Of a stretch of DNA of 64,000 bases, positions 3,743 to 32,952 are shown piece after piece; position 1 is the stretch's first letter, and every line of letters starts with the position of its first letter. This DNA is from Escherichia coli. GTDB taxonomy: Bacteria > Pseudomonadota > Gammaproteobacteria > Enterobacterales > Enterobacteriaceae. The notes under the pieces were generated by a model that did no database searches, had not been told where the DNA came from, and worked only from the letters and a program-made list of their open reading frames with translations. The stretch lies in NCBI RefSeq assembly GCF_003991155.1, contig NZ_CP031297.1, one strand, 5' to 3'. Both the position numbers and the translations under genes were made by a program.

Positions 3743-3772
3743 TTTACAGTATTATAAAATGATGCTGTGAAA
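3743..3772. promoter_or_regulatory. 28-bp palindrome family copy (TTTACAGTATTATAAAATGATGCTGTGAAA)
   Basis: Imperfect inverted repeat in divergent intergenic region; family recurs ~9x. Confidence 0.5.
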
Positions 3773-3935
3773 AGTAAAGTTTTCAGAACGACCAGTCACT
3801 CAGGAGAACTTGATAAGCACCAGAAAGCAATCTAAAGGTGGTTTTTCGGTGAGGTTAGTTCAGGGGCAACCTGTCTTGCTGATTGAAAATCATCAAGAAG
3901 TGGTTTTTTGGTGTGGTTACGGTTTGAGGGGGTGA

Positions 3936-3955
3936 GTATGTGGGAACGTTGCACG
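3936..3955. repeat. isolated iteron copy (TATGTGGGAACGTTGCACGG)
   Basis: Exact iteron consensus ~2 kb from main array, 18 bp upstream of ORF start 3973. Confidence 0.6.
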
Positions 3956-3972
3956 GTTAAAGGGGGCCGCAC

Positions 3973-4581
3973 ATGAAAACGATAAAGCGGTTCATCGTAT
4001 GGGTGAATTACGGTCTTGAGGGTTGGAGCATTTTCGGATCGAGCGATGACTGGGATGAAGCGGTATCCATCCGTTCGGAAGCGATAGACGAATGCAATAT
4101 TGATGAGGAAGACATCATCTTGGCAGAAAACAAAAACGAGCTGGTGGTAAAACCTGCGGCCAAGCAAATGACGGAGTGGCACCGGGAACTGGAAGCCGTC
4201 CTTATGACCTTGGATGACTGCCAGATGGAATGTGACGGCATGACATGGGCAGTAAGCCACCTACTCAATGACGCGGGTGTACCTCATGACTGCATGTATG
4301 GTTTTGTGCGAAACGAACAGACCAAGGACATCGTGACACCGCATTTCTGGGTTGTCCTGGATGATGGGTGGTTGGTGGATCTGAGGCTACGCATGTGGCT
4401 TGGCGATCACGACAACATTCCTCACGGGGTATTCCATCCCGATAACGAGCCAGGATTTTTCTACAAGGGAGACCCCGTTCAAAACCATAAAGGGATGAGA
4501 CTGGGCAAAGCCGTCCTGGACATCATGACCGACGGAAAAATTTCACATGTGAAAGTTCCTGAACGACAAGACGGAGAGTAA
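3973..4581 (+). CDS. hypothetical protein
   Basis: 202-aa ORF with RBS; no recognisable motif. Confidence 0.5.
   Translation: MKTIKRFIVWVNYGLEGWSIFGSSDDWDEAVSIRSEAIDECNIDEEDIILAENKNELVVKPAAKQMTEWHRELEAVLMTLDDCQMECDGMTWAVSHLLNDAGVPHDCMYGFVRNEQTKDIVTPHFWVVLDDGWLVDLRLRMWLGDHDNIPHGVFHPDNEPGFFYKGDPVQNHKGMRLGKAVLDIMTDGKISHVKVPERQDGE
4540..4555. promoter_or_regulatory. parS-like palindrome TTTCACATGTGAAA (family copy, imperfect flanks)
   Basis: Core palindrome inside 3' end of ORF 3973..4581. Confidence 0.5.
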
Positions 4582-4585
4582 TAGC

Positions 4586-5107
4586 GTGGAATTTGATTAC
4601 GACAAGTCAGTATCAAACGCACATCTTGAGGCCGCAGGCTGGGGTATGGATGCCTTTAATCACTCCAACCCATTTGAGAGCCATGTCATCTATGTGCGTG
4701 ACTACCGCAACGATCACATCCGCCTGTTCACCATCAAGAAGGCTGACTTCGACACGATAAAGCTGCCGCTTCACCTTACCTCCGACATGCTGGCTTCGGT
4801 GATCGCTGAGTTCGTATCGAAGGCAGCAAAAGGGAAGTTGAATACGAAGGAGTCCGATACGCTGGCTCCTGCCTTGGTTGGCTATGCCAAATCAACAGAA
4901 ACCTACCGGAGCTGGCGGAGAGTGTCTGGAACAACAGAGCGATTGCATATGGTCATCAATATCTACGCGGGTTCTGGATTGCTGAGACCTTTCATCGCTC
5001 GGGCTCCTGAGACCGTCCTGACGACCCAAGAGCTACTGGTCTTCTCATCACAGGTTAAGAACATGGATGTATCCAATCATCCAGAGTGGTTTAGGGGCCT
5101 GAGGTAG
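4586..5107 (+). CDS. hypothetical protein (GTG start)
   Basis: 173-aa ORF. Confidence 0.45.
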   Translation: MEFDYDKSVSNAHLEAAGWGMDAFNHSNPFESHVIYVRDYRNDHIRLFTIKKADFDTIKLPLHLTSDMLASVIAEFVSKAAKGKLNTKESDTLAPALVGYAKSTETYRSWRRVSGTTERLHMVINIYAGSGLLRPFIARAPETVLTTQELLVFSSQVKNMDVSNHPEWFRGLR

Positions 5108-5109
5108 TC

Positions 5110-5631
5110 ATGAAGGCAGTTCTCTGGATATTCGTCCTTATCATTGCACCTTTCGTCATTGCGAAAGTGGACCAGTGGCGCAAACGCGGCATTGGAGACA
5201 CCTGGGCGTGGTGGAAATCAGAGAACATGCCTTATGAGCTGCGCTCGGCCACTCTGTTTTTATCCGAACAGGACATATCAACCACACAGCCGGTGCCCAT
5301 GCACGGCAGGGTTGATCAGGTGTACAAAGCCAAGAATGGGGTTCTCATTCCCTTGGACACCAAGCTGCGCCAGGTAAACCACATCTATGAGTCGGACATT
5401 ATCCAGCTCTCGGTTTACCGGGTAATTCTGTCACACAAGTACAAGGCACCCGTTGCCAAGTACGGCTATGTCCGAACCGTTGTTGAGACAGCGGACGGGG
5501 ATAGAGTCCGTTACATCAAGACAAACCTTCTCAGCGAAAAAGAAGTGGTCAAGTTGTGGCACCGCTATCAATCCATCCGTTCTGGTCAGGTAAAAACCTC
5601 CTGTTCCTGTGGCGGAAAGTTTCACATGTGA
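5110..5631 (+). CDS. hypothetical protein with N-terminal TM helix
   Basis: 173-aa ORF, RBS GAGG upstream. Confidence 0.5.
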   Translation: MKAVLWIFVLIIAPFVIAKVDQWRKRGIGDTWAWWKSENMPYELRSATLFLSEQDISTTQPVPMHGRVDQVYKAKNGVLIPLDTKLRQVNHIYESDIIQLSVYRVILSHKYKAPVAKYGYVRTVVETADGDRVRYIKTNLLSEKEVVKLWHRYQSIRSGQVKTSCSCGGKFHM

Positions 5632-5635
5632 AAGT
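5618..5635. promoter_or_regulatory. parS-like 18-bp palindrome AGTTTCACATGTGAAAGT
   Basis: Overlaps stop codon of ORF 5110..5631. Confidence 0.5.
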
Positions 5636-5727
5636 TCTGGATTGAATTAGGGTTGCCCGAATTGGGCAGCTAGGCGGGGTTGCATTTTTGAAAAGTCCTG
5701 TACGCTGGTTGGTATAGGAGGTGAATA

Positions 5728-6201
5728 GTGGCCCAGCTTAAACATAACCGCTTCGTCATGTTGGGGTCCTTGGTAGCGACGGTCGTAGCTGCTGCGAATG
5801 GCTTGAGTTTTCTCACCCTTATGGCTGGTGGAATGACCCTTATCCAGTTCATGGCTTGGAAGCAACAAGATGCTGTCCGTAGCCGGTTTAAAGCTGCGAA
5901 GGATGCGTTTGAAGCGTTGAACGTTATTGCGTTCGACAAGCACTGGGTAGGTTCAACCGCGACGGTCGCCAAAGTGTCGAACATGATCACTCCGCCCGAA
6001 CGACTGGATAAGCCCTGGGCGGTGCAAGTTCTGGCCGTAACCAAAGGTGGGACGTGGTTCGCAGTGGATCTGCAAGTGACCGGCACTGACAAGGTTCAGA
6101 TGCTTAGCCTCCACCAGCTTAGTGAAAAGGCGGCAAAGACCATGCTGGCCTTCGACCTCGAAGTGTATGAAAAATTTTTCGGAAAACCTGATGTTGCATG
6201 A
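5728..6201 (+). CDS. hypothetical membrane protein (GTG start)
   Basis: 157 aa, hydrophobic N-terminal segments, RBS AGGAGG. Confidence 0.45.
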   Translation: MAQLKHNRFVMLGSLVATVVAAANGLSFLTLMAGGMTLIQFMAWKQQDAVRSRFKAAKDAFEALNVIAFDKHWVGSTATVAKVSNMITPPERLDKPWAVQVLAVTKGGTWFAVDLQVTGTDKVQMLSLHQLSEKAAKTMLAFDLEVYEKFFGKPDVA

Positions 6202-6505
6202 GGACAATGTGATGGAAAAAGTCAAAAGCGTAGATGCCGTGGAGTTCACGGCAGCAGATAAGAAGGCGATGACCCATGCGGCATACGCCCAGTGTTTCTT
6301 CATTCTGGCCCAAGTGATGGCATTCCCTTCCCTAGGGGTGGCTGGCGCTATGGTTGCTGCTCTGTGCGGCATGATGCCGTGGTTGACCAAGTTCGCCAAA
6401 GAGGCTCCATCGAAAGCCTTTGGCATGGTGATGGCTTCACTCTGCCTTGCTCCTGTGTACGGGAAACTCTGTGAGCTGGTGGTCCACGCGATTCAGGGAG
6501 CTTGA
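6191..6505 (+). CDS. hypothetical membrane protein
   Basis: ~104 aa from internal ATG of ORF 6122..6505; hydrophobic. Confidence 0.35.
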   Translation: MLHEDNVMEKVKSVDAVEFTAADKKAMTHAAYAQCFFILAQVMAFPSLGVAGAMVAALCGMMPWLTKFAKEAPSKAFGMVMASLCLAPVYGKLCELVVHAIQGA

Positions 6506-6509
6506 GCTT

Positions 6510-14418: not shown

Positions 14419-14967
14419 ATGAACAACCTGCCCCTACTGCTCGACGCAAGAGAAGCCATTGACTACTACCACCAGCATCCAGACATGACTGATGCAGAAA
14501 AGGCCTATGTGGTCGCGTTCCTAAGCGGAGAGGGGCGCTCAAACAGTCAGATCAGAGAGGAACTGGGGATTGAGAAGGTATACACGGTTACACACCTGAA
14601 ACGCGCCGGTACGCTGTCGGAGGAAGAGCTCACACTCTGGCTCAGAAATCCACGCAAGATCACCCTGGGACATGTGAGAGCCGTGGCTAAGTTACCTATC
14701 AGCAAGAGAGAAAAGCTCCTGAGGGATCTCCTGCATACCAGGACACCGGTTCATACATATGAGGCGATAGCGAAGGGCAAAGAAGTGGATAGGGATGCTG
14801 ACATTAAGCGTCTGGAAACCCTGATGAGCGATGCGACGGGTAGGCCCATCAAAATTCGCTATAACCCCGCGAAGCGCTCCGGGGAGCTGACGCTGGGATT
14901 CTTCACGCTCGATGACCTGGATGACGTGTGCAAGGCTCTGGGGTTTGATCCAAGCGAGCAGATGTAA
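14419..14967 (+). CDS. hypothetical protein, possible HTH
   Basis: 182 aa; ITLGHVRAVAKLP segment reminiscent of ParB-type HTH (weak). Confidence 0.4.
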   Translation: MNNLPLLLDAREAIDYYHQHPDMTDAEKAYVVAFLSGEGRSNSQIREELGIEKVYTVTHLKRAGTLSEEELTLWLRNPRKITLGHVRAVAKLPISKREKLLRDLLHTRTPVHTYEAIAKGKEVDRDADIKRLETLMSDATGRPIKIRYNPAKRSGELTLGFFTLDDLDDVCKALGFDPSEQM

Positions 14968-15015: not shown

Positions 15016-15043
15016 TTTACAGTATCATAAAATGAATCTGTAA
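15016..15043. promoter_or_regulatory. 28-bp palindrome family copy (TTTACAGTATCATAAAATGAATCTGTAAA)
   Basis: Adjacent to parS-like site, upstream of ORF 15057. Confidence 0.5.
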
Positions 15044-16361: not shown

Positions 16362-16703
16362 TTAGCTAAAGCATTCGCCGGTTTTAAAGTCGTAGCTGTA
16401 AGTGCCCATCAGATTGGCTTTTCGGCTTTTTTTGCCATTGGTGTTTGCTGGCGCTTTAGGGGTCGCAAGTACGCCATAGAACAGGATACCAACAAGTGCC
16501 GCTTGCCACGCGAAAACAGCAACCAGAATCCAAAAAGCAGCAGCCAGAACCGGCAGTTTGTGCAGAAGGTTGAGCACCGGCTTGGCCCAAATCACTGCCG
16601 GGATAGCCAGCACTGCGTAACCCCAGTTGGTTGCCTCAAGCATAGCCAGGCCAAGAACAACAACAGCCATCAGCGCGATATTCAGTACATGTTTCATGGT
16701 CAT
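16362..16703 (-). CDS. small membrane protein
   Basis: 113 aa, 3-4 hydrophobic segments; convergent with upstream gene. Confidence 0.4.
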   Translation of the reverse strand: MTMKHVLNIALMAVVVLGLAMLEATNWGYAVLAIPAVIWAKPVLNLLHKLPVLAAAFWILVAVFAWQAALVGILFYGVLATPKAPANTNGKKSRKANLMGTYSYDFKTGECFS

Positions 16704-16793
16704 CTCTCCTTTTCAACTTACACTTTTATCCTATCACAGCATTAAAAAATGCAACTGTGAAAGGGCGTTTTTCATTCAAAAAGAGGTGACACT

Positions 16794-17282
16794 TTGAGTG
16801 CAATTATCAGCAAGTGCGGCATGTACAGATACCGTCTGGAAAGGGATGTGCAACCCGAAGGCCTTGTGTTCGGTTATTTTGGTGTAAACGGCTCTACGGC
16901 CACGGCCACCGAGGACGATCACACGGTCAGAAAGTGGATAGGGTTTACCAAGGTCAACGGAGGGAGGCGATTCATAGTCGGTAATGCTTTTGCTTTTCGG
17001 GCGACCGACGTTCGAGAGCTGGCTACGGCGGTTGATCCTGTCGGGCCTGAAAATGAAATCCACTTGGAAAGGATTATTCGGGATGCTGATGTCTTGGTGC
17101 CCTGCTGGGGGAGCCGAACTAAGCTGCCTAAGTCTTTGCATGTTCATTTGGACAGGCTTTTAGAGCAGCTCGTTGCATCTGGGAAGCCGGTATTGGCATT
17201 TGGCGTGACTGGTTCGGGGGACCCGAAGCACCCACTAATGCTTGGATATTCGACAAAACTTGTGCCCTGGGGAGGAAAATAA
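16794..17282 (+). CDS. DUF1643-like protein
   Basis: 162 aa; N-terminal CGMYRYRLER motif that I recall as the DUF1643 signature. Confidence 0.5.
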   Translation: MSAIISKCGMYRYRLERDVQPEGLVFGYFGVNGSTATATEDDHTVRKWIGFTKVNGGRRFIVGNAFAFRATDVRELATAVDPVGPENEIHLERIIRDADVLVPCWGSRTKLPKSLHVHLDRLLEQLVASGKPVLAFGVTGSGDPKHPLMLGYSTKLVPWGGK

Positions 17283-17782: not shown

Positions 17783-17828
17783 AGGAAAATTACTTCGGAA
17801 GGGCGGCTATGGCCGCTTTCTTTTTAAT

Positions 17829-17856
17829 ATTTACAGTATCACATAATGATACTATG
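17829..17856. promoter_or_regulatory. 28-bp palindrome family copy (TTTACAGTATCACATAATGATACTATGA)
   Basis: Upstream of ORF 17886. Confidence 0.45.
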
Positions 17857-17885
17857 ATGTTGTTAATTTACTTGGGGAGGCGCTT

Positions 17886-18149
17886 ATGCTCACTGCTAAA
17901 TGTATAGGGTGCGGATGCACCGATGATCACGCTTGTGTTGAAAACGGTCAACCGTGTCACTGGCTTCGCGTGAATAGAGTGGAAGGTATCGGGGTCTGCT
18001 CTTCGTGCCCGGATGCTCTCAATCAATTCGCATCGACCAGCCAGGAACAAGCAACTGGACAGGATGACTACCGGAACAGTCCAGAATGGAAGGATTTTTC
18101 ATCACGCATTGGTAATGCACTATGCGGGGGCCGGAGCAAAGCAAAGTAA
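17886..18149 (+). CDS. Cys-rich small protein
   Basis: 87 aa; CIGCGC ... CSSC. Confidence 0.4.
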   Translation: MLTAKCIGCGCTDDHACVENGQPCHWLRVNRVEGIGVCSSCPDALNQFASTSQEQATGQDDYRNSPEWKDFSSRIGNALCGGRSKAK

Positions 18150-18154
18150 GGTAA

Positions 18155-18176
18155 AAACGGCTATGCCGTTTTTTAT
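18155..18176 (+). terminator. rho-independent terminator
   Basis: AACGGC-TAT-GCCGTT hairpin followed by T-run. Confidence 0.5.
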
Positions 18177-18183
18177 TTGTCTA

Positions 18184-18331: not shown

Positions 18332-19276
18332 TTGGGGTACGGGATGGAACAAGCAATTCAAAGTTACTTGGCTGACGACCGGCAATATCAAGACAGGATT
18401 ACCGCAGCTCTCAGCCAGGTTGAAGAGAAAGGTGCAGAGTACGAAGCTCTTTGCCAACAGCGTGCTCAGTTGGGGATCTGGCAAAAAATTATAACGTTCT
18501 GGCAGTTTCGTCGAGACATCGCCGTTATACGTTCAGCACTAAAAGGCCATAACAGCGATTTGCGGTATTTGCGCCGTGGGAGAGACCAGCTCAAAGAGGG
18601 ATTGGTTTCTCGGGCCGTGAAGCAAGCGATTGACGGTAGCCAGATTCTGGAACGAATCACCCAAGCTCAAGATAGGCTTGACGCCGCATCTCGACTCCAC
18701 GAGAGCAACAAGCGACTGGTGGACATGGGGCAAAAAGCCTTACGTGAAATCAGTGAGGCCTCTTCCAGTATTTCATCAGCACAAACAATGGAGGTTCTCG
18801 ACCTTGTGACTGACAACAAGGGCATTTCCGTCATGTCGTCGATGTCAAACTCCTCGGCCAGCAGTGAAATAGACGATGCGAAGAGAGCTGTGAAAGCCTT
18901 CGCAAATGCGCTGGGGGATCATCGTGACATTGTGGGCTCACTGCACCACTCAATGGCAACTGAGTTTATCGATCTGGGTATGGACTTTGCCGGTTTGAAT
19001 GATGGTTTCGACTTTGGGAGCGTCTTCTCGCTGTTCAGCTTGTCGTCTGCCAGTTCCTCTCTGGACAAAGTAGAGTCTCGCGTTGAATCTCTGATGCCAG
19101 ATCTAAGACGAGCCGCCTCCAATTCGGCAGCAGAGTATGCCCGTGTTAACGAAGAGTTCTTTGGCCTAAAACAACAGGCCTGTTGCCAAGTGCATGAGTT
19201 GCTGGTGACAAATGGTATAGACGTGTCAGTCAAGCGCGTTGAGTCCGCCGTGAACAGCTACAGAGTTGGAAGGTGA
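18332..19276 (+). CDS. hypothetical protein (coiled-coil-rich)
   Basis: 314-aa ORF. Confidence 0.45.
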   Translation: MGYGMEQAIQSYLADDRQYQDRITAALSQVEEKGAEYEALCQQRAQLGIWQKIITFWQFRRDIAVIRSALKGHNSDLRYLRRGRDQLKEGLVSRAVKQAIDGSQILERITQAQDRLDAASRLHESNKRLVDMGQKALREISEASSSISSAQTMEVLDLVTDNKGISVMSSMSNSSASSEIDDAKRAVKAFANALGDHRDIVGSLHHSMATEFIDLGMDFAGLNDGFDFGSVFSLFSLSSASSSLDKVESRVESLMPDLRRAASNSAAEYARVNEEFFGLKQQACCQVHELLVTNGIDVSVKRVESAVNSYRVGR

Positions 19277-19277: not shown

Positions 19278-19307
19278 ATTTACAGCATCATAAAATGAAC
19301 TTATGAT
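19278..19307. promoter_or_regulatory. 28-bp palindrome family copy (TTTACAGCATCATAAAATGAACTTATGATG)
   Basis: Upstream of AAA+ ATPase gene. Confidence 0.5.
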
Positions 19308-19349: not shown

Positions 19350-20813
19350 ATGAGCGATATTACACAGCAAATGGACAAACTTGAGATTCCAATCAAGTTG
19401 TCCTTTCCAGTCATCAACGTTAGCACTTTTGAGCTGGGCCGTGCAGAGAGCGTTTTCTCTGACATTGCAAAGAAAGTCGGCAAGCACTTTATTGTGATGC
19501 CATTCAAGAAGCTGCCCGATCCAGGCACGATGAAGGCAATGGTGGACGAGTCCAAGAAGTCCTCCAAAAACGGTGTTGTCGTGTTCGACACTTTCTTTTT
19601 CGACCGACAACGTGCAAACCCGGAAACACTCCCAGCCCTCAAGTCATCACTGACCTATCTGGAGAATGAGGGGATCAACTACATCATCGCTGGCAAAGAC
19701 GTCTTCAATGAAGAGTTCGTTTATCACATCGATCTCCCGGCTATGAGCAATCAGGAAATCCTGAAACTGCTCCAGACCTGTGAAGATAACGTGAAAGATG
19801 GTGGAGTCTTCGAGAGCAACGAACGTGCTGTCATCGCAAACCACGCCCTGGGCTTGTCACACACCCAGATGAAGAACGTCTTCACCTATTCCGCTTACTT
19901 GAAATTCAAGGGTGAAGAATACCTGGGCGAGATCCGAAAAGAAAAAGCTCACATCTTGCGTGATGTCGGCCTCGATGTGCTTGAGGCCATTGATATTGGG
20001 AATGTCGGTGGGCTCGAAAACCTCAAGGAGTTTCTCCAGATACGTAAAGCCGGTTGGGACAAAGACCTTCCGGTAAAAGGTGTCCTTCTGGCCGGTGTAC
20101 CTGGTGGTGGTAAATCGCTGACGGCAAAAGCCGCTGCCGGTGTACTTGGCACTACCTTGGTTCGCCTGGATATGGGCCGTTTCTATAGTAAGTATCTCGG
20201 TGAAACCGAGCGCCAGTTCAATCGTGCATTGCAGACCATTGAGCAGATCGCACCCGTTGTTGTGTTGATTGACGAGATGGAGAAGTTTTTTGGTAATGCC
20301 GATGGCGAACACGAAGTATCCAAGCGCCTGCTGGGCTCTTTCCTCTACTGGCTTCAAGAGCGCAAGAAGAAGATCTTCATTGTGGCGACGGCCAACCGGG
20401 TTCAGTCGCTGCCTCCTGAATTGATGCGAGCTGGCCGCTGGGACCGAGCATTCTTCATTGATCTGCCAAGTGTGGCTGAGCGCCAGAAGATTTTCGAGAT
20501 CCACCTCGCCAAGCAGAAGGCCAACATCGCCGCGTTCGATATGCCTACGCTACTGCGTACCACCGAGGGATACACCGGGGCAGAGATTGAACAGGCCGTC
20601 ATTGACGCGATGTATCTGGCGAACGCTCAGGACAAAGAGCTCAACAATGAAGCGCTGGTGGATGCGGTCACTCGCATTACCCCGACCAGTGAAACTCGCC
20701 GAGAAGACATCAACCAGATTCGCAGTTTGCGGGATCAAGGCTTCTATCCGGCCAATAACTTCGATGTTCAAGAGCAGAATGGCTCTGGACGAAAACTCGC
20801 CATCGAGGACTAA
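19350..20813 (+). CDS. AAA+ ATPase, classic clade (Ycf46-like)
   Basis: 487 aa; Walker A GVPGGGKS, Walker B VVLIDEMEK, SRH ATANRVQSLPPELMRAGRWDRAFFIDLP; ~230-aa unassigned N-domain. Confidence 0.8.
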   Translation: MSDITQQMDKLEIPIKLSFPVINVSTFELGRAESVFSDIAKKVGKHFIVMPFKKLPDPGTMKAMVDESKKSSKNGVVVFDTFFFDRQRANPETLPALKSSLTYLENEGINYIIAGKDVFNEEFVYHIDLPAMSNQEILKLLQTCEDNVKDGGVFESNERAVIANHALGLSHTQMKNVFTYSAYLKFKGEEYLGEIRKEKAHILRDVGLDVLEAIDIGNVGGLENLKEFLQIRKAGWDKDLPVKGVLLAGVPGGGKSLTAKAAAGVLGTTLVRLDMGRFYSKYLGETERQFNRALQTIEQIAPVVVLIDEMEKFFGNADGEHEVSKRLLGSFLYWLQERKKKIFIVATANRVQSLPPELMRAGRWDRAFFIDLPSVAERQKIFEIHLAKQKANIAAFDMPTLLRTTEGYTGAEIEQAVIDAMYLANAQDKELNNEALVDAVTRITPTSETRREDINQIRSLRDQGFYPANNFDVQEQNGSGRKLAIED

Positions 20814-20874
20814 GCGATTAACTTTGTCATGCCGGAACACGGCATGACCCCCGAAACAACTCAGGAGTGATGAG

Positions 20875-21267
20875 ATGAGCCATATCGTAAAAGGCAAGGT
20901 GCAGGTCGCCTACAAAGACAAAGAGCTGCTGTTGAAGGCTCTGGAGGGAGTTGGCGTCGTTGTTGAAAACGAAAAGCTATACCGCGTGGGCGCTGGCTAC
21001 ACCTTCGAGAAATACCCGATTGTTCTGATCGACCAGAACAACAAGGAGCACCGGATTGGCTACAAGGAAAAAAACGGTGTTTGGGAGCAGTACCAGGAAA
21101 ACTACGGCTCTTATGGCCGCTGGACGCAGCAGGCAAGCAGCAAGGTGCAGGATCGCTACATTGCCTTCCACTACGAGCAGCAGTTGAAAGAGGAAGGTTT
21201 CAGCGTGACGGTGAAGCAGCATCACGATGGCACTTTGGAACTGGAAGCTGAGGAAGCTGTTTGGTAA
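20875..21267 (+). CDS. small conserved protein, DUF1257-like
   Basis: 130 aa; N-terminus MSHIVKGKV..LLLKALEGVG resembles DUF1257 as I recall it; own RBS. Confidence 0.5.
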   Translation: MSHIVKGKVQVAYKDKELLLKALEGVGVVVENEKLYRVGAGYTFEKYPIVLIDQNNKEHRIGYKEKNGVWEQYQENYGSYGRWTQQASSKVQDRYIAFHYEQQLKEEGFSVTVKQHHDGTLELEAEEAVW

Positions 21268-21315
21268 TAGCGCCAAGGCAATCAGATTAGTTGAACTTAA
21301 CGACGAGGTGACAAA

Positions 21316-21510
21316 GTGAAAAAGGTAAACATCAAGATCAAGGGCGGCAAGATTGCTGCCGATTTCACGGGGTTTCAGGGTAAGACCTGTGAAGCGCTGG
21401 AGCAGCGTATTCGCCCGGAAGAGCTCGAAGTCGAAGAAAAAGAGCTGAAACCCGAGTACCACTTCAATGCTGGTCAAACCCAGCACGAAACGGAACAGAA
21501 CGAATGGTGA
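21316..21510 (+). CDS. small conserved protein, DUF2997-like (GTG start)
   Basis: 64 aa; MKKVNIKIKGGKIAADFTGFQGKTC; RBS GAGGTG. Confidence 0.45.
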   Translation: MKKVNIKIKGGKIAADFTGFQGKTCEALEQRIRPEELEVEEKELKPEYHFNAGQTQHETEQNEW

Positions 21511-22688
21511 TGAGAAGGACAGGGCGCGTCCCCCTTCTTTTGCTGGTTGGTCTCATGGTCGCAGCTCCTGCGGCCTTTGCCAGTGACTTTGTGACTGGCG
21601 TAATGGTGGGGCAAATGCTCTCAGATGACTCAGGCAGCAAGAAGGTAGAGGACACTGGCCCGGAGAGCAAAACGGTCATTGATTACCATGACGGTCAGCC
21701 AGTTGTGACCAAAGTGGAGGCCTTCAAAAGCAATAAATGGCGCAAACTGGATGGCCCTCAGGGCGGCTATTTTGTTTGCCCAGGTGAATACCGTAGCTAT
21801 TCGGGAAGGCTGCGTTGTCGCGTCCATGATGACGGGCTCAATGGCTTTATGGGCGGTATGACTGATGCTCAGGAGCTACCGCTCCAAGAAGCTCTGACCA
21901 AGTTGGAAGGTAAACCCATCTCCCTGCAAACCATTGAAGTCCACGGGAACAACCTGGCAGTCAAATACCAGTTAGCACCACCAGCACAAACGCACGTCAA
22001 AACTCAGGACCTGGGGGTGGTTAAGCAAGATGGTGAAATGCAGAAGGTTGCCAGCCAACCACCAGCGCTATCCATAGAGACTGCACCAAAGAGTGAACCT
22101 CCCAAGCAGATTGGTGCTGCACAAGACACCGACCGCAATACCAGTGCGTTTCAAAGTCCGTTCGAGGAGGTAAGTGACTCCATGATCGGTCTAATGGATA
22201 GCTCTTTCGTCAAAGTCATAGCGGGGTTGATGCTGGTGTTTGGGGTTGCTAGTGGAATTATGAGGCAGAGCCCATCAGGAATTGTGATGGGGATAATGCC
22301 TGCAATTATGATCATGACCGCGCCAACGGTTATTCGTACCATGTTCGATACAGGCGCGGCCAGTACCAAGCCAGTGGAAGATAGCGGAAGCTCATTTCCT
22401 TTCTTCTTGGTGGCAATAGTGCCGGTGCTGATTTTCTTTGCCTATAGAGCTTTTATGAACAACCGGAGCGACTCCGAAATTGATGAGTTGTTAAGAGAAG
22501 CCCGACGTGCTGAAAGGGCTGAACGACCAAGCAATGAGCCTCCCTCAGTGGATGAACTCCGTGAGCGCCAGCAACAAAACCCAGAAAGAGAACCGGTGGT
22601 TGTCAGCTCATCAGCTCCGGCACCAAAGGTGCAAAAGGAAGAGCCAATCGAAGTACAGCCAGGCAAGCGCAAAATTATTTTGGATTAG
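21504..22688 (+). CDS. membrane protein with periplasmic N-domain and cytoplasmic tail ending PIEVQPGKRKIILD
   Basis: 394 aa; signal peptide, ~200-aa periplasmic region, hydrophobic segments, charged tail. Confidence 0.55.
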   Translation: MVMRRTGRVPLLLLVGLMVAAPAAFASDFVTGVMVGQMLSDDSGSKKVEDTGPESKTVIDYHDGQPVVTKVEAFKSNKWRKLDGPQGGYFVCPGEYRSYSGRLRCRVHDDGLNGFMGGMTDAQELPLQEALTKLEGKPISLQTIEVHGNNLAVKYQLAPPAQTHVKTQDLGVVKQDGEMQKVASQPPALSIETAPKSEPPKQIGAAQDTDRNTSAFQSPFEEVSDSMIGLMDSSFVKVIAGLMLVFGVASGIMRQSPSGIVMGIMPAIMIMTAPTVIRTMFDTGAASTKPVEDSGSSFPFFLVAIVPVLIFFAYRAFMNNRSDSEIDELLREARRAERAERPSNEPPSVDELRERQQQNPEREPVVVSSSAPAPKVQKEEPIEVQPGKRKIILD

Positions 22689-22699
22689 TGGGGTAGGTT

Positions 22700-23047
22700 A
22701 TGAGCAAAAAGCGCATCGTAATCAAAAATGGTGAGGTCTGCGGGTTTGCCGATGAGGTTTCCTTCAAAGGCCTTGAAGTGCAGGAATACAGTAAAACAAG
22801 GGTTTCGCGCATCGTGCCGACGAGCGGCATTCTAATGATTGCGTTCTATGTTATTCGCGGACTTTGTTCAGACGAGTCAAAGATTGCGGCATGGACTCGT
22901 GTTTGGCGTTGCCAGTGGAAGGTGCTGATCGACGGTAAAAGCTATGGACCATTCAGCAGTCGTGCGGATGCTATCTCGTTCGAGAAGGACGAGATCTACA
23001 AACAAGGCAAATTCTTTGCCGATGCCACTCACGAGGCGGCAGTATGA
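22700..23047 (+). CDS. hypothetical protein
   Basis: 115-aa ORF. Confidence 0.4.
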   Translation: MSKKRIVIKNGEVCGFADEVSFKGLEVQEYSKTRVSRIVPTSGILMIAFYVIRGLCSDESKIAAWTRVWRCQWKVLIDGKSYGPFSSRADAISFEKDEIYKQGKFFADATHEAAV

Positions 23048-23472
23048 TGACACGGGCGGCTATGGCCGCGCTGTTATCCGCGTTGGTAATAGGCCTTGTG
23101 TCTGATTTGTCCGCACAAGAGCTGGTGGTAAGCCAGGTGGCTATAGACAAGTCCACTGAGGTGGAGAAAGAAGCTACCTTCCACAACCGCAAGTGGGTGT
23201 TAAGGACGGGGCAGGTTAGTGGATTCTTCATCTGCCAAGGAGATAACAAAGACATTTACTACCGGCATGACAGGGTGGGCGCTCACTGCCAGAAGACATC
23301 GACTGGGTGGCGCAATGTACTGGGTCTCAGGGACGATGTTCCGGAAGTTGAGCTGAGCGTGTACCTGGGGACCGTTGAAGGTGTCCCCGTGAAAGTCCTT
23401 CATCAGGAAGTGGATGGTTACGATCTGAAAGTGCAGTACAAGGTTGCACGTAAAGGGTCAGCAAATGAGTGA
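23044..23472 (+). CDS. secreted hypothetical protein
   Basis: 142 aa; signal peptide MMTRAAMAALLSALVIGLVSDLSAQ. Confidence 0.45.
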   Translation: MMTRAAMAALLSALVIGLVSDLSAQELVVSQVAIDKSTEVEKEATFHNRKWVLRTGQVSGFFICQGDNKDIYYRHDRVGAHCQKTSTGWRNVLGLRDDVPEVELSVYLGTVEGVPVKVLHQEVDGYDLKVQYKVARKGSANE

Positions 23473-24028
23473 GAGTGTGCGTCGGTCAACGCCGATGGTA
23501 AAGATTAAAATCCTGCCGAGTTTCGTAGGGGTTCCCTTCCCGTCGGTGCTACTTATCGTTGCGGGGCTCCTTAATGGCCCTTTGTGGGGCTTTGCCGCAT
23601 TCGTCTTTCATATCGTCATCAAGCGGTACATCTACAGAGAATACCGGAGGTTGCCATATCCGATGCCAACCGGCTCAAGGCCTATGGATGAGTTGAGCGA
23701 GCTCCTTGTAAAGGGGATACCGGAGGAATTTTTCCGGCGGCTTGACGCAGCTTGCAGCTCTGATGCGTCAGTACAAATAACCTGCCCAAAGAAATACCGG
23801 CTGCTCAAAATGTCGTTGAATCGCTATGCCAACCGCGCTGGTTGTTACCCGCAGTTCCGGGAGGGGGATGAAATAGCGATTGAGGTAACAGAGCAGAGAC
23901 CAAGAAAAGCAGGAGCAGGGAAGGGCTTTCCAAGTATTCAAGTTCTGAAAGCGTCAGAGGGTGTTCTGAGTGAACCGGAGCAGCCTATCGAAATTCAGAA
24001 AGATAAGCGCAAGATTATCTTGGATTGA
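23465..24028 (+). CDS. membrane protein with C-terminal tail PIEIQKDKRKIILD
   Basis: ~187 aa from ATG 23465; N-terminal TM helices; tail paralogous to 21504..22688. Confidence 0.5.
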   Translation: MSESVRRSTPMVKIKILPSFVGVPFPSVLLIVAGLLNGPLWGFAAFVFHIVIKRYIYREYRRLPYPMPTGSRPMDELSELLVKGIPEEFFRRLDAACSSDASVQITCPKKYRLLKMSLNRYANRAGCYPQFREGDEIAIEVTEQRPRKAGAGKGFPSIQVLKASEGVLSEPEQPIEIQKDKRKIILD

Positions 24029-24039
24029 GGTGGGTTGGA

Positions 24040-24609
24040 ATGCGGTCATTTTTATACAGAATATTGCTTCTTTGCTTCGTCATTATCGTCCAGATAGGGC
24101 TAATCGCCATTGATGCGAGCCCGTTGGTTGTTGCTATGTTCCTCTCGCTAACAGCTTTAGTCGCTGGGGTCTGGATGGCGTACCTTCATTCCCGATTTTT
24201 GATGGCGGTGACTCCAGTAGTTATCTCTGTGCTAATGGCGACCCTCGCCATGAAAATGTTTGAGCCGAGACTCTTTGTTTCTGCCAGCGAAAAAGGCTGG
24301 TTCCCTTTGTCATTGTTCGTCTCGATACCGTTTTACTTCTACTTGAGTTACTTGCTTGAGATAGAGGAGAAGAGACGTACATTCCGGGCCAATGTGATTG
24401 GGTTTTTGCGTGGAGTTTCGGAAGAGATCCGTCGTTCAACCAGAGAGCATAGAGATCAAGGTGAGATAAGACACGGTGGAACAGAGCTGGGGAGTATTGA
24501 CGAACTACAAAGGGGCGAGGCCAAAGAGCCAGAAGTCATCAGCTCTACATCGGACCAGAAAGAACAAGGCACTCCCAAGCGAGACAAGAGAAAAATCATT
24601 CTGGACTGA
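24040..24609 (+). CDS. membrane protein with C-terminal tail KRDKRKIILD
   Basis: ~189 aa from ATG 24040 (RBS GAGGTG); several TM helices; same terminal motif. Confidence 0.5.
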   Translation: MRSFLYRILLLCFVIIVQIGLIAIDASPLVVAMFLSLTALVAGVWMAYLHSRFLMAVTPVVISVLMATLAMKMFEPRLFVSASEKGWFPLSLFVSIPFYFYLSYLLEIEEKRRTFRANVIGFLRGVSEEIRRSTREHRDQGEIRHGGTELGSIDELQRGEAKEPEVISSTSDQKEQGTPKRDKRKIILD

Positions 24610-24611
24610 AC

Positions 24612-25157
24612 ATGGAACAAATCAGAAAAGGCTTAACCCTCGAATACGCAAAAGAGAAGCGTGAGAAGCTCTTGGCGGAGCTCAAATCAGATGAACACTA
24701 CAGCCAGACTGAAACAGTAGCCTATGGGCACCACGACCCGCTCAGCGTTCCTGTGGCAGCCTGCGATAGTTGTCATGGCCGGGCGCAAATGCAGAAGGTT
24801 ATAGGTCCTCCTGTGCGCTGGAATATGGTCTGCCTGGGTTGTGGGAAGGCGATCCAACAAATCCAGAAACGACCGTGGCAAGCAGCAATGGCGTGGAACC
24901 AAATTAACTTGGGAACACAGGACTACAGACAACTGCCCCTCTTTGGACTTGGGAGTCTGTCTCCTGAATCAGCAAGACAGAGAATGGTGGGAATACGCAG
25001 GAACCTGGAGCTGAGAAAGAGCCTCGCCGGTATCGAGAGGACGATAGCCCACAAGGAAGGTCAACGCCCACCAGGGAAAGAGTACCAGCAACGACTGGAA
25101 GCATATCTGCAATGGGCCATGCTGGCGCTGAGGTTGCTCAAAGTCAAAGCAAGTTAG
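24612..25157 (+). CDS. hypothetical protein with Cys4 zinc-ribbon-like motif
   Basis: 181 aa; CDSCHG ... CLGCG. Confidence 0.45.
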   Translation: MEQIRKGLTLEYAKEKREKLLAELKSDEHYSQTETVAYGHHDPLSVPVAACDSCHGRAQMQKVIGPPVRWNMVCLGCGKAIQQIQKRPWQAAMAWNQINLGTQDYRQLPLFGLGSLSPESARQRMVGIRRNLELRKSLAGIERTIAHKEGQRPPGKEYQQRLEAYLQWAMLALRLLKVKAS

Positions 25158-25216: not shown

Positions 25217-25244
25217 TTTACAGTATCAAAAAGTGATGCTATAA
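25217..25244. promoter_or_regulatory. 28-bp palindrome family copy (TTTACAGTATCAAAAAGTGATGCTATAAA)
   Basis: Upstream of ParB-like gene 25274. Confidence 0.5.
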
Positions 25245-25273: not shown

Positions 25274-26212
25274 ATGGCTGTTATCAACTCACTCCGCGCT
25301 CTCAAAGGCGTAACCGCCCCCGAAGAACTGAAAAAAGGGGATGGATTCACTATCTCTCCTCAGCTTCTGCTGGAGGAAGAAGGGTTTAACACCCGTGGCG
25401 CTTTCTGCGAGGACTACTACGAGCGCCCGGACATCAAAGCTGGTATTCGAGTGCTGGCCGATGCTTACAAGCGTGGCGACTATGTTCCGCCGATCATCGT
25501 CAAAGTTATCGACGGAAAGGTGTATGTCCGTGAAGGTCATCGCCGTCGCCGCGCCATCCTGCTTGCTATAGAGGAAGGTGCCGACATCCAGTTCGTGCAG
25601 GTCGTAGAGCACAAGGGCGATGAAGCCGAACAGAGCCTTCTGATCGCCACCAGCAACGATGGGCTCCCTCTTTCTCCACTTGAGCGAGCCGTGATCTACG
25701 CTCGGCTTGCAAACTGGGGGTGGAGCGACCAGATGATTGCCCAACGTGTTGGCCGCTCGGCTGAGCACGTTCGTATCGCCCGTGCCCTTTTGGAGATGCC
25801 TCTGGAACTGAAACGGATGATTCAGGAAGGCTCTGTGGCTGCCACCTACGCTCAGGAGCTCTACAACGAGCACGGCACCAACGCTGTTGAGATCCTGAAA
25901 AAGGCGCAGGAAGAACAGGCCAGTGGCAATGACGGCAAGAAGGCCCCGAAAAAACTGACCAAAAAGTCTGTCGAGAAAGGTCCCCGCCTGGGCAAAAAGG
26001 TGGTTGAAGCCATGCACCGAGGCGTGAGCTCTATTACCAGTCGTCTGGACAACATCAAGCCGAACGATGACGGTGAAACGTTCACCCTTACCCTGAGCCG
26101 GGAAGATGTTGATGCGTTTCAGGAGCTGAAAGCCAAGCTGGCGGAGCTGGAGCCCAAAACTGACGAGTCCAATGAAGACCAGCAAGAGCTGGATTTGGCG
26201 GGTAATCAGTAA
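25274..26212 (+). CDS. ParB/Srx-domain protein (second, orphan ParB-like; KorB-like candidate)
   Basis: 312 aa; ParB N-domain motif VREGHRRRRAIL, HTH region, Lys-rich C-terminus; no adjacent ParA. Confidence 0.7.
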   Translation: MAVINSLRALKGVTAPEELKKGDGFTISPQLLLEEEGFNTRGAFCEDYYERPDIKAGIRVLADAYKRGDYVPPIIVKVIDGKVYVREGHRRRRAILLAIEEGADIQFVQVVEHKGDEAEQSLLIATSNDGLPLSPLERAVIYARLANWGWSDQMIAQRVGRSAEHVRIARALLEMPLELKRMIQEGSVAATYAQELYNEHGTNAVEILKKAQEEQASGNDGKKAPKKLTKKSVEKGPRLGKKVVEAMHRGVSSITSRLDNIKPNDDGETFTLTLSREDVDAFQELKAKLAELEPKTDESNEDQQELDLAGNQ

Positions 26213-29247: not shown

Positions 29248-29267
29248 CAGCACAAACCTTGTCAATA

Positions 29268-29326: not shown

Positions 29327-29354
29327 ATTGCAGTATCATTTTATGATCGCTACA
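29327..29354. promoter_or_regulatory. 28-bp palindrome family copy (ATTGCAGTATCATTTTATGATCGCTACAA)
   Basis: Upstream of parA, abutting parS-like site. Confidence 0.5.
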
Positions 29355-29355
29355 A

Positions 29356-29373
29356 TCTTTCACATGTGAAAGT
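29356..29373. promoter_or_regulatory. parS-like palindrome TCTTTCACATGTGAAAGT
   Basis: 17/18 match; 42 bp upstream of parA start. Confidence 0.6.
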
Positions 29374-30206: not shown

Positions 30207-30209
30207 GCG

Positions 30210-31391: not shown

Positions 31392-31433
31392 TAAAGGAGG
31401 CCCAGCCAAAGAGGTTGGGCCTGTCAAGAACAG

Positions 31434-31712
31434 GTGAATATGAAGATCTCACAGGACATGAAAAGAAAATTTGCTTTGGTGAATGCCCTGTCTAAAACGG
31501 AGAAGCCAAGTCTCCAAGACCTTCACAAGGCAACAAATATTCCTGAATCAACGATCAAGAGACAGTTGTCTGCCCTGCGTGATGAGTTCGGAATGAATAT
31601 CTTGTTCGTCAGGGAGTCTACCGGCGAACGAGGTGCCACCGGCTACTACATGCTGACAGACTGGGGGATCTTAGACAGGTCTTCGTTCTTGAACCGGTAC
31701 GGAAAACTGTAA
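31434..31712 (+). CDS. small protein, possible winged-helix regulator
   Basis: 92 aa; PSLQDLHKATNIPESTIKRQLSALRD. Confidence 0.4.
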   Translation: MNMKISQDMKRKFALVNALSKTEKPSLQDLHKATNIPESTIKRQLSALRDEFGMNILFVRESTGERGATGYYMLTDWGILDRSSFLNRYGKL

Positions 31713-31740
31713 GGTGCCATAGAGCAGCGCATTGAATGCA

Positions 31741-31767
31741 AAACCCGCCAATCGGCGGGTTTTTTTA
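31741..31767. terminator. bidirectional rho-independent terminator
   Basis: CCCGCC-AATC-GGCGGG hairpin with A-run upstream and T7 downstream, between convergent genes. Confidence 0.65.
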
Positions 31768-32433
31768 TGCTGCCACGGTAGCGGCGGTTGCTGGAGGTTT
31801 TTCGGCGTAGTAGGCGATGTTCTTGGTTCGTCTGCTAAGGGTGTCTATGCCGACGATACTCAGCGTTTTGGGAGTGGTATTGCGGGACTCGAAATAATGG
31901 AATAGCTGGATCATGCAGCACTTCACCATCAACGGATCGATGTCTTCCAGGTAGATTGAGGCTTCTCTCAATGCTTCGGGACCGTGGTTCTCGATCAGGT
32001 TTTCCATCCAGTGAATGGCGTTGATGCCAGAACCACAGCAGGGCTCATAAAAGTCTGCCGAAGACTGTGAGCCAACAATGAGTGACATCAAGCGGCCAAT
32101 CTCTGGAGGAGTGGGGAAGTAATTGGTGCCCTTCTTGTGGAAGCCAGACATGCTTAGGACGTAACCCAAAACATCGCTGGTGGGGTCGCGCTTAATGGCG
32201 GCAGACAGGACGTGAGAGAGCTCGAAGGCGACCGGCTGAAGTTCTTCCGGGATCTCCTCCTTGGCTGGGTATAGGCCAGTCTGCAAGTATGCCCACTGGT
32301 CAATAAAGGCCTCAACAAACCGAGATGTGCCCATTCTGTATCGGGACTGCTCGATGAGAGATAAAGCCTTGGATGTAAGTTGCTGTGTTTCTGGTGACAT
32401 AAGCGCTCCAGTTTGTTCTGACGAAACATTCAA
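31765..32433 (-). CDS. N6-methyltransferase-like protein lacking catalytic motif IV (possibly truncated)
   Basis: 222 aa; motif X NYFPTPPEI and motif I FYEPCCGSG present, no (N/D/S)PP(Y/F/W) motif. Confidence 0.4.
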   Translation of the reverse strand: MNVSSEQTGALMSPETQQLTSKALSLIEQSRYRMGTSRFVEAFIDQWAYLQTGLYPAKEEIPEELQPVAFELSHVLSAAIKRDPTSDVLGYVLSMSGFHKKGTNYFPTPPEIGRLMSLIVGSQSSADFYEPCCGSGINAIHWMENLIENHGPEALREASIYLEDIDPLMVKCCMIQLFHYFESRNTTPKTLSIVGIDTLSRRTKNIAYYAEKPPATAATVAA

Positions 32434-32704
32434 GAGGTAGAAACGAAGAACCCCGCCGAAGCGAGGTTCTTTGCTTTCCTGCCTGATCGCCTTAATGCCG
32501 AAGCAAAGACGTCTTGATAAAGTCGGGGCAACCGGACATTTCCCGGTCGATGAAGTCCTGACGTTTCGCCAGCGGCCATTTCATGAACGCCGCGAGCGGG
32601 ATGCGCTTATTCGTGTTAGTATTGCCTTGCAGCATAACAAAGCTCCTTAATTGCTTGATTGTGTTGTAAGGGCTGCAACGAAGGTCGAAGAGCGATGCGG
32701 CCCT

Positions 32705-32740
32705 TATTTATGATTATTACAGCATCATAAAATAATATCA
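32705..32740. promoter_or_regulatory. 28-bp palindrome family copy (TTACAGCATCATAAAATAAT core)
   Basis: Divergent intergenic region 32434..32952. Confidence 0.45.
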
Positions 32741-32770
32741 AGAGACAATAAAACGATACCAAGAAACAAA

Positions 32771-32788
32771 ACTTTCACATGTGAAAGT
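32771..32788. promoter_or_regulatory. parS-like 18-bp perfect palindrome ACTTTCACATGTGAAAGT
   Basis: Exact; divergent intergenic region. Confidence 0.6.
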
Positions 32789-32847
32789 CTCCCCGCTGTC
32801 CACCTCGCACACTCCAAACGCCCAAACGCCCAAATAACTTGTCTATC

Positions 32848-32862
32848 TGCCCAAAATGGGCG
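32848..32862. promoter_or_regulatory. TGCCCAAAATGGGCG motif
   Basis: Identical to copy at 18227. Confidence 0.4.
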
Positions 32863-32921
32863 CGTAAGCGTCCGATAGAAAGTAATTGTTAGTGAGATAT
32901 TGACTACACGGAATATGGCTA

Positions 32922-32952
32922 TATCATAGAATCATAAAATGATGCTGTAAAA
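32922..32952. promoter_or_regulatory. 28-bp palindrome family copy (ATCATAGAATCATAAAATGATGCTGTAAAAG)
   Basis: Immediately upstream of ORF 32953. Confidence 0.5.

Follow-up and report, generated by a model that had tools for sequence, protein, structure and literature searches.

A 29-bp palindrome family at operon starts of the IncC plasmid backbone: candidate operators of a plasmid-wide repressor

A palindrome family on the IncC backbone

We identified a family of 29-bp palindromes at operon starts in a 64,000-nucleotide stretch of Escherichia coli contig NZ_CP031297.1 (assembly GCF_003991155.1), hereafter the window, which is backbone DNA of a multidrug-resistance plasmid of the IncC (IncA/C2) type, with repA as its first gene. 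The same palindrome is found at the promoters of several operons, with ten intergenic copies in the window and three elsewhere on an IncC plasmid, each before a first gene. We propose, with a probability of roughly 65%, that this element is a sigma-70 promoter with a built-in repressor site, and we infer from the pattern of the copies that they may act as operators of one plasmid-wide repressor, a view that is partly supported. When a 6-kb sample of the window was compared with sequenced plasmids, more than 500 IncC (IncA/C2) plasmids matched at 99% identity or above. In addition, the gene order is that of the standard IncC backbone, namely repA, a 3'-phosphoadenosine-5'-phosphosulfate (PAPS)-reductase gene, dsbA, higBA, an AAA+ module, an orphan ParB gene, parA-parB-053, topoisomerase III, mobH and traD, so that the palindromes belong to a resistance plasmid on which much work has been done.

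The consensus of the family is TTTACAGYATCAT-AAA-ATGATRCTGTAAA, laid out as 13-3-13. Searching with the 29-mer of an earlier note on this DNA at up to three mismatches, where no match is expected, recovered the copies starting at 3743, 15016 and 25217, and a looser core pattern additionally picked up 17833 and 32926. Based on a position-weight matrix built from the best copies and scanned across the window, we found all nine copies that the note had listed (the one placed at 32705 being that at 32716) together with an unreported copy at 16733. Their scores range from 16.5 to 43 bits, compared with a maximum of 10 bits over 100 shuffles of the window and of 17.5 bits in 64 kb of random sequence with 35% GC. 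Between 33 and 64 kb of the window the scan gave no copy, the best score being 3.0 bits, and 13-mer half-sites with up to two mismatches had no match in the window beyond the ten copies. The copies are all intergenic, as previously noted: not one of the 29 bases of any copy is coding, and 0 of 290 motif bases in a region that is 9.6% intergenic corresponds to P ~7e-11. On the two null distributions, the copies at 32716 (one good half, 16.5 bits) and 29327 (core only) rank as marginal and weakest. The latter, at the parA promoter (PparA), is under-scored by the full 29-mer matrix owing to the 1-nt shift of its right arm, and it was handled as a core-only copy.

Promoter-like anatomy

The outer hexamers of the palindrome are 17 bp apart and resemble the -35 (TTTACA; TTGCAG at parA) and -10 (TRTAAA, TATGAT or TACAAT) elements of sigma-70 promoters, and the inner inverted repeat ATCAT-N3-ATGAT occupies the spacer, so that each copy looks like a promoter with an embedded operator. 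The inner repeat is not needed by RNA polymerase. TGTAAA, the reverse complement of TTTACA, already resembles TATAAT, and where the symmetry is broken it is broken toward the -10 consensus on the gene-facing side, with TATGAT at 17830 and 19279, TATAAA at 25217 and TACAAT at 29327.

We scanned both strands from 14 to 33.5 kb (19.5 kb) with the consensus TTGACA-N16-18-TATAAT and obtained 16 promoter-like sites, which overall is no more than chance. Only five of the 16 reach 10 of 12 consensus positions; four of these are the arms of 17830(+), 19279(+), 32716(-) and 32923(-), and the fifth overlaps 32923. Read in the direction of the gene, the arms of the copies match the consensus at 7-10 of 12 positions. 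Three copies (17830, 18183 and 29327) come directly after intrinsic terminators, as expected for the starts of new transcription units. The view that the copies mark operon starts therefore agrees with both their coincidence with the best sigma-70-like sites of the region and the terminators in front of three of them. The further suggestion, that a -10 element lies in the AT-rich centre, is right in special cases such as the leftward promoter at 3743 (TATAAT at 3756-3751) and wrong as a rule, as it is the outer arms that align with -35 and -10.

Conservation across elements

Orthologous copies are present at every matching intergenic region of the IncA plasmid pRA1, and also in Shewanella pSX2_LC6 (~86% identical). 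In ten aligned regions, 76% of the motif columns are invariant compared with 59% in 50-bp flanks (Fisher P = 8e-8). The family also reaches MOBH-type elements so distant that 053, the protein encoded by the last gene of the par operon, is down to 35% identical. Members were found on the pAQU-type Vibrio plasmid pVAS114, on contigs of Photorhabdus khanii, Xenorhabdus eapokensis and Marinobacterium, and on two metagenomic contigs, while in pAQU2 the motif is found at parA, behind 053 and at an additional gene. Four copies, one of them near-perfect (ACTATAGCATCATATAATGATTCTATAGT), lie on Alcaligenes pGZAF1_VIM, whose 053 is only 35% identical and whose parS sequence differs. The Comamonas thiooxydans plasmid NZ_CP083939 (comparison loci L011 and L020) has motif-type promoters before slt-acaDC, stbA, an H-NS gene and an orphanParB-parAB-053 operon. 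Across these gamma- and beta-proteobacterial elements the inner GYATCAT is the constant part.

On a complete IncC plasmid we found three further members, at the acr1-acaDC promoter, at an eexC-like gene and at another minus-strand gene. The IncC acr1 promoter reads TTGACAGCATCAT-N-TATAAA (left half 12/13, 17.6 bits), the acr1 promoter of pVAS114 keeps the other half (TTGATAGGCTCACTTTATGATCCTATAAA, 25.5 bits), and in the Comamonas plasmid it is TTTACAGTATCGGAAAATGAACTTCTAAA that directly drives slt-acaDC. The operon of AcaCD, the master activator of conjugation, is thus among those that carry the element. A sub-variant, ACCACGGCATCAAAAAATGCAACTGTGAA, stands before the eexC-like gene, beside a parS, and a similar one before the other minus-strand gene. 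The idea that only the transfer region lacks copies is consequently true of the window, which has none from 33 to 64 kb, and does not extend to the whole plasmid with its members at acr1-acaDC, the eexC-like gene and one further gene.

Several observations on these elements are recorded here in their own right. In NZ_CP083939 there are six copies of a parS variant of its own (TTTTCGCATGCGAAAA) and seven copies of CTTGCATTTTT, which resemble promoter -35 regions; the parAB-053 operon begins with the orphan ParB homologue, and slt-acaDC is not preceded by acr1. Photorhabdus caribbeanensis (L014, 9640-11412) has an IncC-like element that carries parB-053 without parA and with a decayed promoter parS (TTCACTATGAAAAA); the palindrome core ATCATTTTATGA still precedes parB-053, and 053 is 88% identical. 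Marinobacterium aestuariivivens (L024, 4486-5604) has eight IncC-type parS cores at 122-224 bp spacing, a centromere-like array as against the scattered single sites of IncC. Sites of the sub-variant ATCACAGCATYAAAAAATGCAACTGTGAA are at 16733-16761 of the window, near 71658 (L008 9658) and 154520 (L009 20520) of NZ_CP031576, at L019 3319 and at L013 3401. The genes behind them are small and on the minus strand, at least two (16362-16697 and the eexC-like gene) begin with MKH and look paralogous, and TTGCAT, the likely -35, lies at an offset position within the element.

Individual copies in the window

The ten copies are listed in Table 1 with the neighbouring parS cores and gene 053. As previously claimed, three copies (15016, 29327 and 32716) sit beside a parS-like palindrome, and a fourth (18183) has parS 18314 ~100 bp downstream.

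Table 1. Palindrome copies, neighbouring parS cores and gene 053 in the window (coordinates of the 64,000-nucleotide stretch).
Feature	Sequence	Position	Strand	Remarks
S1	TTTACAGTATTATAAAATGATGCTGTGAA	3743..3771	.	41.7 bits; divergent region between PAPS-reductase operon (leftward) and 3973 operon (rightward)
S2	TTTACAGTATCATAAAATGAATCTGTAAA	15016..15044	+	42.8 bits; 24 bp downstream of parS 14978
S3 (sub-variant)	ATCACAGCATTAAAAAATGCAACTGTGAA	16733..16761	-	27.3 bits; between minus-strand gene 16362-16697 and DUF1643 gene at 16794
S4	TTTACAGTATCACATAATGATACTATGAT	17830..17858	+	directly after terminator 17800-17819; upstream of 87-amino-acid open reading frame 17886-18149
S5 (degenerate)	ATTACGGCATCACATTATAAGCCTGTAAA	18183..18211	+	23.9 bits; after bidirectional terminator 18153-18173, upstream of gene 18344-19276
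S6	TTTACAGCATCATAAAATGAACTTATGAT	19279..19307	+	arms TTTACA-17-TATGAT, 10/12; promoter of AAA+ ATPase module 19350-25157
S7	TTTACAGTATCAAAAAGTGATGCTATAAA	25217..25245	+	promoter of orphan ParB-like gene 25274-26212 and its downstream operon
S8 (at PparA)	ATTGCAGTATCATTTTATGATCGCTACAAT	29327..29356	+	spans -35 (TTGCAG) to -10 (TACAAT); abuts parS 29358-29371
S9 (good left half only)	ATTACAGCATCATAAAATAATATCAAGAG	32716..32744	-	16.5 bits, borderline; parS 32773 28 bp away
S10	ATCATAGAATCATAAAATGATGCTGTAAA	32923..32951	.	41.2 bits; ends 10 nt before start codon at 32962
parS core	TTTCACATGTGAAA	14978..14991	.	exact; next to S2
Further parS cores near copies	TTTCACATGTGAAA	18314-18327, 29358-29371, 32773-32786		exact
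Gene 053		31440..31712	+	90-amino-acid winged-helix protein, last gene of parA-parB-053; Pfam HTH_43 (PF09904), 8.8e-10

The copy at 3743, kept in pRA1 and pSX2_LC6, holds a leftward promoter TTTACT-16-TATAAT (10/12), the -10 of which falls in the centre of the palindrome and 45 nt ahead of the start codon at 3705. At 15016 the arms are TTTACA-17-TGTAAA (9/12), and orthologous copies are present in L002 (pSX2_LC6) and L003, in which the position of the degenerate copy at 18183 is also conserved. The previously unreported copy at 16733 reads TTCACA-17-TGTGAT on the minus strand (9/12), has 90% invariant columns compared with 53% in its flanks among four elements, and belongs to the sub-variant that both IncC and pVAS114 have at the eexC-like promoter. 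The copy at 17830 (arms TTTACA-17-TATGAT, 10/12) is among the five top promoter-like matches in 14-33.5 kb, and it is kept although both of its flanks are unrelated in pSX2_LC6 and the Xenorhabdus contig (69% versus 21% invariant). At 25217 the arms are TTTACA-17-TATAAA (10/12), 28 nt before the start codon, with 86% invariant columns compared with 59% in the flanks, and Marinobacterium (L024 11695) has a near-identical copy before an HTH_ParB gene.

At PparA the core ATCATTTTATGAT is exact, and the left half of this copy is kept in pAQU2, Xenorhabdus, P. caribbeanensis, L025 and L026. The parA start follows the end of the -10 by 64 nt, and our assignment agrees with the published placement of the promoter '64 bp upstream' (Kiss et al. 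2024, PMC10954446). The half copy at 32716 is kept in L002, L003 and L012 and overlaps a leftward promoter, TTGATA-17-AATAAT (10/12, minus strand), toward a 47-amino-acid gene and an N6-methylase. The copy at 32923 also reads leftward (TTTACA-17-TATGAT, 10/12, minus strand) and lies in the 5' untranslated region of a rightward AcaCD-dependent transcript, whose published start site is 55 nt before the start codon (Carraro et al. 2014). This start maps to ~32907 and places the operator at about +15 to +45. Between 32636 and 32962 the order is the leftward promoter with the half-site at 32716, parS 32773, an AcaCD box at ~32843-32871, the transcription start at ~32907 and the copy at 32923.

Some neighbouring genes were of separate interest. 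The open reading frame 17886-18149 encodes an 87-amino-acid, cysteine-rich protein in which CxxC and CxxC-like pairs occur. It is the sole gene between two terminators, follows one of the best copies and gave no family match in NCBIfam or PHROGs. The AAA+ ATPase 19350-20813 matches PADLOC IetA ATPase models (6e-21), and the PAPS-reductase protein 2590-3705 matches BrxP, SspD and DndC domain models; some of the putatively silenced cargo may be related to defence or anti-defence.

Evidence for repression

According to Kiss et al. 2024 (PMC10954446), the cloned 173 bp upstream of parA form a strong promoter, and we found that this fragment holds both the palindrome and parS. PparA was down 8-11-fold in the presence of whole IncC plasmids, and an extra repressor of PparA was proposed as the target of the SGI1 protein Sci; no operator for this repressor was described in that study, in which the palindrome is unmentioned. 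As a candidate site for the missing PparA co-repressor, the palindrome that reaches from -35 to -10 suggests itself at once.

In RNA-seq data for pVCR94 (Carraro et al. 2014), the genes directly behind strong copies (vcrx008-011, vcrx034 and vcrx035) had 0-19 reads per kilobase per million mapped reads (RPKM), and parA-parB-053, behind the weakest copy, had 184-911 RPKM. Promoters that are strong by consensus and silent with the plasmid present are what an operator model predicts, which is circumstantial evidence in its favour. In the same data the leftward gene vcrx035 stayed at 0 RPKM even with AcaCD over-expressed, though AcaCD binds upstream, as if transcription were blocked downstream of the activator site.

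In the mechanism that we propose, the outermost hexamers would serve as -35 and -10, and the inner arms (G)YATCAT/ATGATR(C) would be the recognition site of a plasmid-encoded dimeric repressor, which would cover both hexamers together with the DNA that separates them and keep RNA polymerase away. Maintenance and cargo operons in the left third of the plasmid would in this way be kept at low expression. Degenerate copies, at the par operon, the eexC-like gene and the acr1-acaDC master-switch operon, would repress more weakly, so that weak copies such as that of PparA would leak and strong ones would be silent. Several copies adjoin parS sites bound by ParB, and it is for this reason that the repressor and ParB may act jointly, as KorA and KorB do on RK2. 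The earlier proposal of one element-encoded repressor for the maintenance and cargo block is thus favoured by inference from conservation above the flanks, the best sigma-70-like sites, silent genes and PparA repression, and it needs amending in that the family is not confined to the left block.

Several points weigh against the promoter-operator reading. The match to a promoter is weakest at 18183 (7/12), and 3743(+) and 16733(+) have poor -10 candidates (TGTGAA). The borderline copy at 32716, the IncC acr1 promoter (17.6 bits) and the eexC-like member (17.4 bits) do not rise above the extreme of the AT-rich null. The copy at 32923 is too close (10 nt) to the gene behind it to be that gene's promoter and must therefore be a roadblock or a leftward promoter. 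Moreover, the silence in RNA-seq could reflect weak promoters and not repression.

Other explanations for the palindrome

The coincidence of the outer arms with promoter hexamers would also be expected if the copies were a strong, repressor-free promoter cassette spread together with gene modules, the palindrome arising from the near-complementarity of TTTACA and TGTAAA. Copies do lie at module boundaries: pSX2_LC6 (L002 18522-18710) precisely lacks the 5.9-kb AAA+ module between 19279 and 25217 and has a single hybrid copy at the junction, with a left flank matching that of 19279 and a right flank matching that of 25217 (91% identity), which indicates that motif copies bound a cassette that can be gained or lost. 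However, the inner ATCAT-N3-ATGAT is the best conserved part of the element although RNA polymerase does not require it, the best sigma-70 matches have silent genes behind them, the plasmid represses PparA beyond the effect of ParAB053, and the copy at 32923 lies in a 5' untranslated region and is not the promoter of the adjacent gene. We therefore regard a cassette without a repressor as improbable. The same deletion, with its end points exactly in two copies, could be read as the work of recombination sites for cargo gain and loss, either tyrosine recombinase cores or hot spots of homologous exchange; the 11-7-11 geometry is like that of Xer-type core sites, and the neighbours of 17830 differ between plasmids. 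Nevertheless, this is very improbable in our estimation, given that no recombinase gene accompanies the copies, that they have no similarity to dif, that the drift toward TATAAT on the gene-facing side fits a promoter and not a crossover site, and that RecA-dependent exchange between any 29-bp repeats would give the same deletion.

That the palindromes act as RNA hairpins in termination, processing or attenuation appears the most remote of these explanations. Folding is possible for some copies (-11.3 kcal/mol at 3743, for instance), but most folds are weak (0 to -7.8 kcal/mol), no T-run follows any stem, a terminator scan called none of the copies and, with the right arm as -10, the element would lie upstream of its own transcript. 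Weak folds and missing T-runs led us to exclude terminators and RNA hairpins.

Candidate binding proteins

If the copies are operators, the best single candidate for their binder is 053, although we give it somewhat less than an even chance, and most of the remaining probability goes to a protein unrecognised here. In every element examined, 053 is the only small DNA-binding protein encoded right after parB behind a motif-bearing par promoter, and its conserved residues are in the recognition helix and wing. Its AlphaFold2 model (predicted local distance difference test 83.5) has the order H-H-H-beta-wing-beta-H, with H for helix, and is nearest in the PDB to 3ke2, followed by MarR and SmtB repressors. 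The gene is highly expressed in pVCR94, the acaCD mutant included (RNA-seq, Carraro et al. 2014). A requirement of 053 for plasmid stability is reported, as relayed by Kiss et al. 2024 (PMC10954446), who found it dispensable for partition itself when parAB was driven from PBAD; a need for stability without a role in partition is what a regulator would show. Two results of the same study count against 053: ParA, ParB and 053 supplied from a mini-replicon or from PBAD lowered PparA only 1.5-1.7-fold, and the extra repressor was concluded to be encoded outside the par operon, on the backbone. Their force is softened by the PparA copy being the most degenerate, and the extra factor could be another protein, the H-NS-like Acr2 for instance.

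Natural deletions exclude most other candidates, since pVCR94, pSX2_LC6 and pRA1 keep all the copies they could. Everything between higB and parA is missing from pVCR94; pSX2_LC6 lacks the PAPS-reductase gene, open reading frame 14419 and the AAA+ module, and its orphan ParB is a 72-codon stump; pRA1 lacks higBA and open reading frame 14419. The orphan ParB at 25274 was rejected together with the whole 14.3-29.2 kb block, which is gone from pVCR94 and absent or truncated in pSX2_LC6 while the sites are kept. Open reading frame 14419 (a truncated ParB) is absent from pVCR94, pRA1 and pSX2_LC6, and HigA from pRA1. Open reading frame 13279 has no homologue in the Comamonas plasmid and is at ~1 RPKM in pVCR94; the HU-like protein likewise has no Comamonas homologue and is off in the acaCD mutant, where the targets are still silent. 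The KfrA-like protein has no family member near its own gene. As regards the binders that the earlier note had put forward, 053 (there at 31434) therefore stays a good candidate, and the orphan ParB at 25274 and open reading frame 13279 are disfavoured. Separately, we observed that the product of 14419-14967 is a 182-amino-acid ParB-like protein with only the ParB helix-turn-helix and the ParB_C dimerisation domain, without an N-terminal CTPase domain, encoded directly upstream of parS 14978 and the copy at 15016.

The family could instead be the regulon of Acr1, the Ner-like repressor of acr1-acaDC. In the Ner operators of phages D108 and Mu, inverted repeats of 11-12 bp flank an AT-rich spacer of 6-8 bp, a layout similar to that of the palindrome. 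The acr1 promoter is itself a family member (17.6 bits in IncC and 25.5 bits in pVAS114), the gene of Acr1 lies outside parAB053, which is required of the missing PparA co-repressor, and Acr1 represses Pacr1 in a plasmid-free reporter strain (Carraro 2014). On the other hand, no Acr1 homologue was found in the Comamonas thiooxydans plasmid (tblastn, E<1, over all but 1.5 kb), in which motif-type promoters are present, and IncC-like records with 053 outnumber those with Acr1 by ~80. Pacr1 has other conserved repeats downstream of its -10 that are a possible Acr1 site, and acr1 deletions of pVCR94 were easily obtained, with higher transfer as the sole reported phenotype (Carraro 2014). We consider it unlikely that Acr1 is the binder, though more probable than any of the explanations without a repressor. 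In the pAQU group Acr1 and 053 co-occur, and the comparison does not separate them there; XNC1_p lacks acr1-acr2 according to Carraro 2014.

Comparison with known regulatory systems

The arrangement resembles the KorA/KorB system of RK2/RP4 (IncP-1), in which short palindromic operators on many backbone promoters overlap core promoter elements, some operators are beside ParB/KorB-type sites, and a small helix-turn-helix protein is encoded in the par operon. The KorA operator OA is 12 bp and sits at the -10, whereas the IncC palindrome is 29 bp and spans -35 to -10. Furthermore, 053 is a winged-helix protein of Pfam HTH_43, its Pfam hits include no KorA family, and its gene is downstream of parB. 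Neither OA (GTTTAGCTAAAC) nor the KorB operator OB (TTTAGCSGCTAAA) had a match in the window at two or fewer mismatches. As neither operator sequence nor protein family matches, the palindrome falls outside the KorA/KorB family. The IncC ParB has a KorB domain and 14 parS sites, and binding of ParB to this parS family was shown by electrophoretic mobility shift assay (Kiss et al. 2024, PMC10954446). Like the palindromes, the parS sites of the same plasmid are multi-copy palindromes scattered over the intergenic backbone, but their sequence (TTTCACATGTGAAA, as against ...ACAGYATCAT-AAA-ATGATRCTGT...) is different, and parS lies downstream of the -10 where the palindrome spans -35 to -10. No parS core with its AAAC/GTTT flanks occurs in the palindromes, and the nine exact cores of the window are all at other coordinates.

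The AcaCD boxes (Carraro et al. 2014) are likewise a plasmid-wide regulon of cis-elements on this backbone, and both kinds of site occur in the divergent region at 32.6-32.96 kb. They differ in that AcaCD boxes are activator sites upstream of the -35 at transfer-related promoters, and the palindromes are concentrated in the non-transfer block. The published AcaCD motif for vcrx035/036 maps to ~32843-32871, between 32716 and 32923 and separate from both, and no AcaCD site is published at the other copies kept by pVCR94. Dimers of MarR, ArsR and SmtB-type repressors bind ~20-30 bp palindromes that overlap -35 and -10. In its predicted fold 053 comes nearest to these repressors, although the likeness is at the level of the fold (15-26% identity) and no ligand or metal site was recognised in 053. 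As for host regulators, the LexA box CTGT-N8-ACAG has its arms in the reverse order to those of the palindrome (ACAG...CTGT, 15 bp apart) and its single match in the window overlaps no copy, the Fur and CRP consensus sequences had no match overlapping any copy, and loose TyrR-like matches (two or fewer mismatches) touch only two copies.

Significance for IncA/C plasmids

Among the major carriers of resistance genes, those for carbapenemases included, are the IncA/C plasmids, whose regulation has so far been described mainly in terms of AcaCD, Acr1/Acr2, AcaB and, since 2024, ParB-parS. We found no account of the palindrome family in the searchable literature on these plasmids, which did not extend to Hancock 2017 and Fricke 2009, where a prior mention is possible; the family would be an apparently undescribed layer of plasmid-wide gene silencing. 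If the promoter-operator reading is true, a second conserved operator family would be a missing layer of control over about ten operon starts, the par promoter and the acr1-acaDC switch, and it would account for the apparent transcriptional silence of large parts of the backbone. The palindrome also offers a concrete cis-element for two questions of the 2024 study in Nucleic Acids Research, the PparA co-repressor and the target through which Sci destabilises the plasmid. A more far-reaching and tentative possibility, which we consider rather doubtful as a whole, is that 053 is a KorA-like global repressor that forms a two-repressor circuit with the KorB-like ParB at scattered parS sites and silences maintenance, defence-like and cargo cassettes. 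Such a circuit would be conserved among gamma- and beta-proteobacteria in their MOBH-type plasmids and integrative elements, would gate acr1-acaDC, would have its copies bounding exchangeable modules that stay under central control, and could be the cis-target of the co-repressor system disabled by Sci. Should the copies indeed be operators, their derepression could be used to raise plasmid cost or instability.

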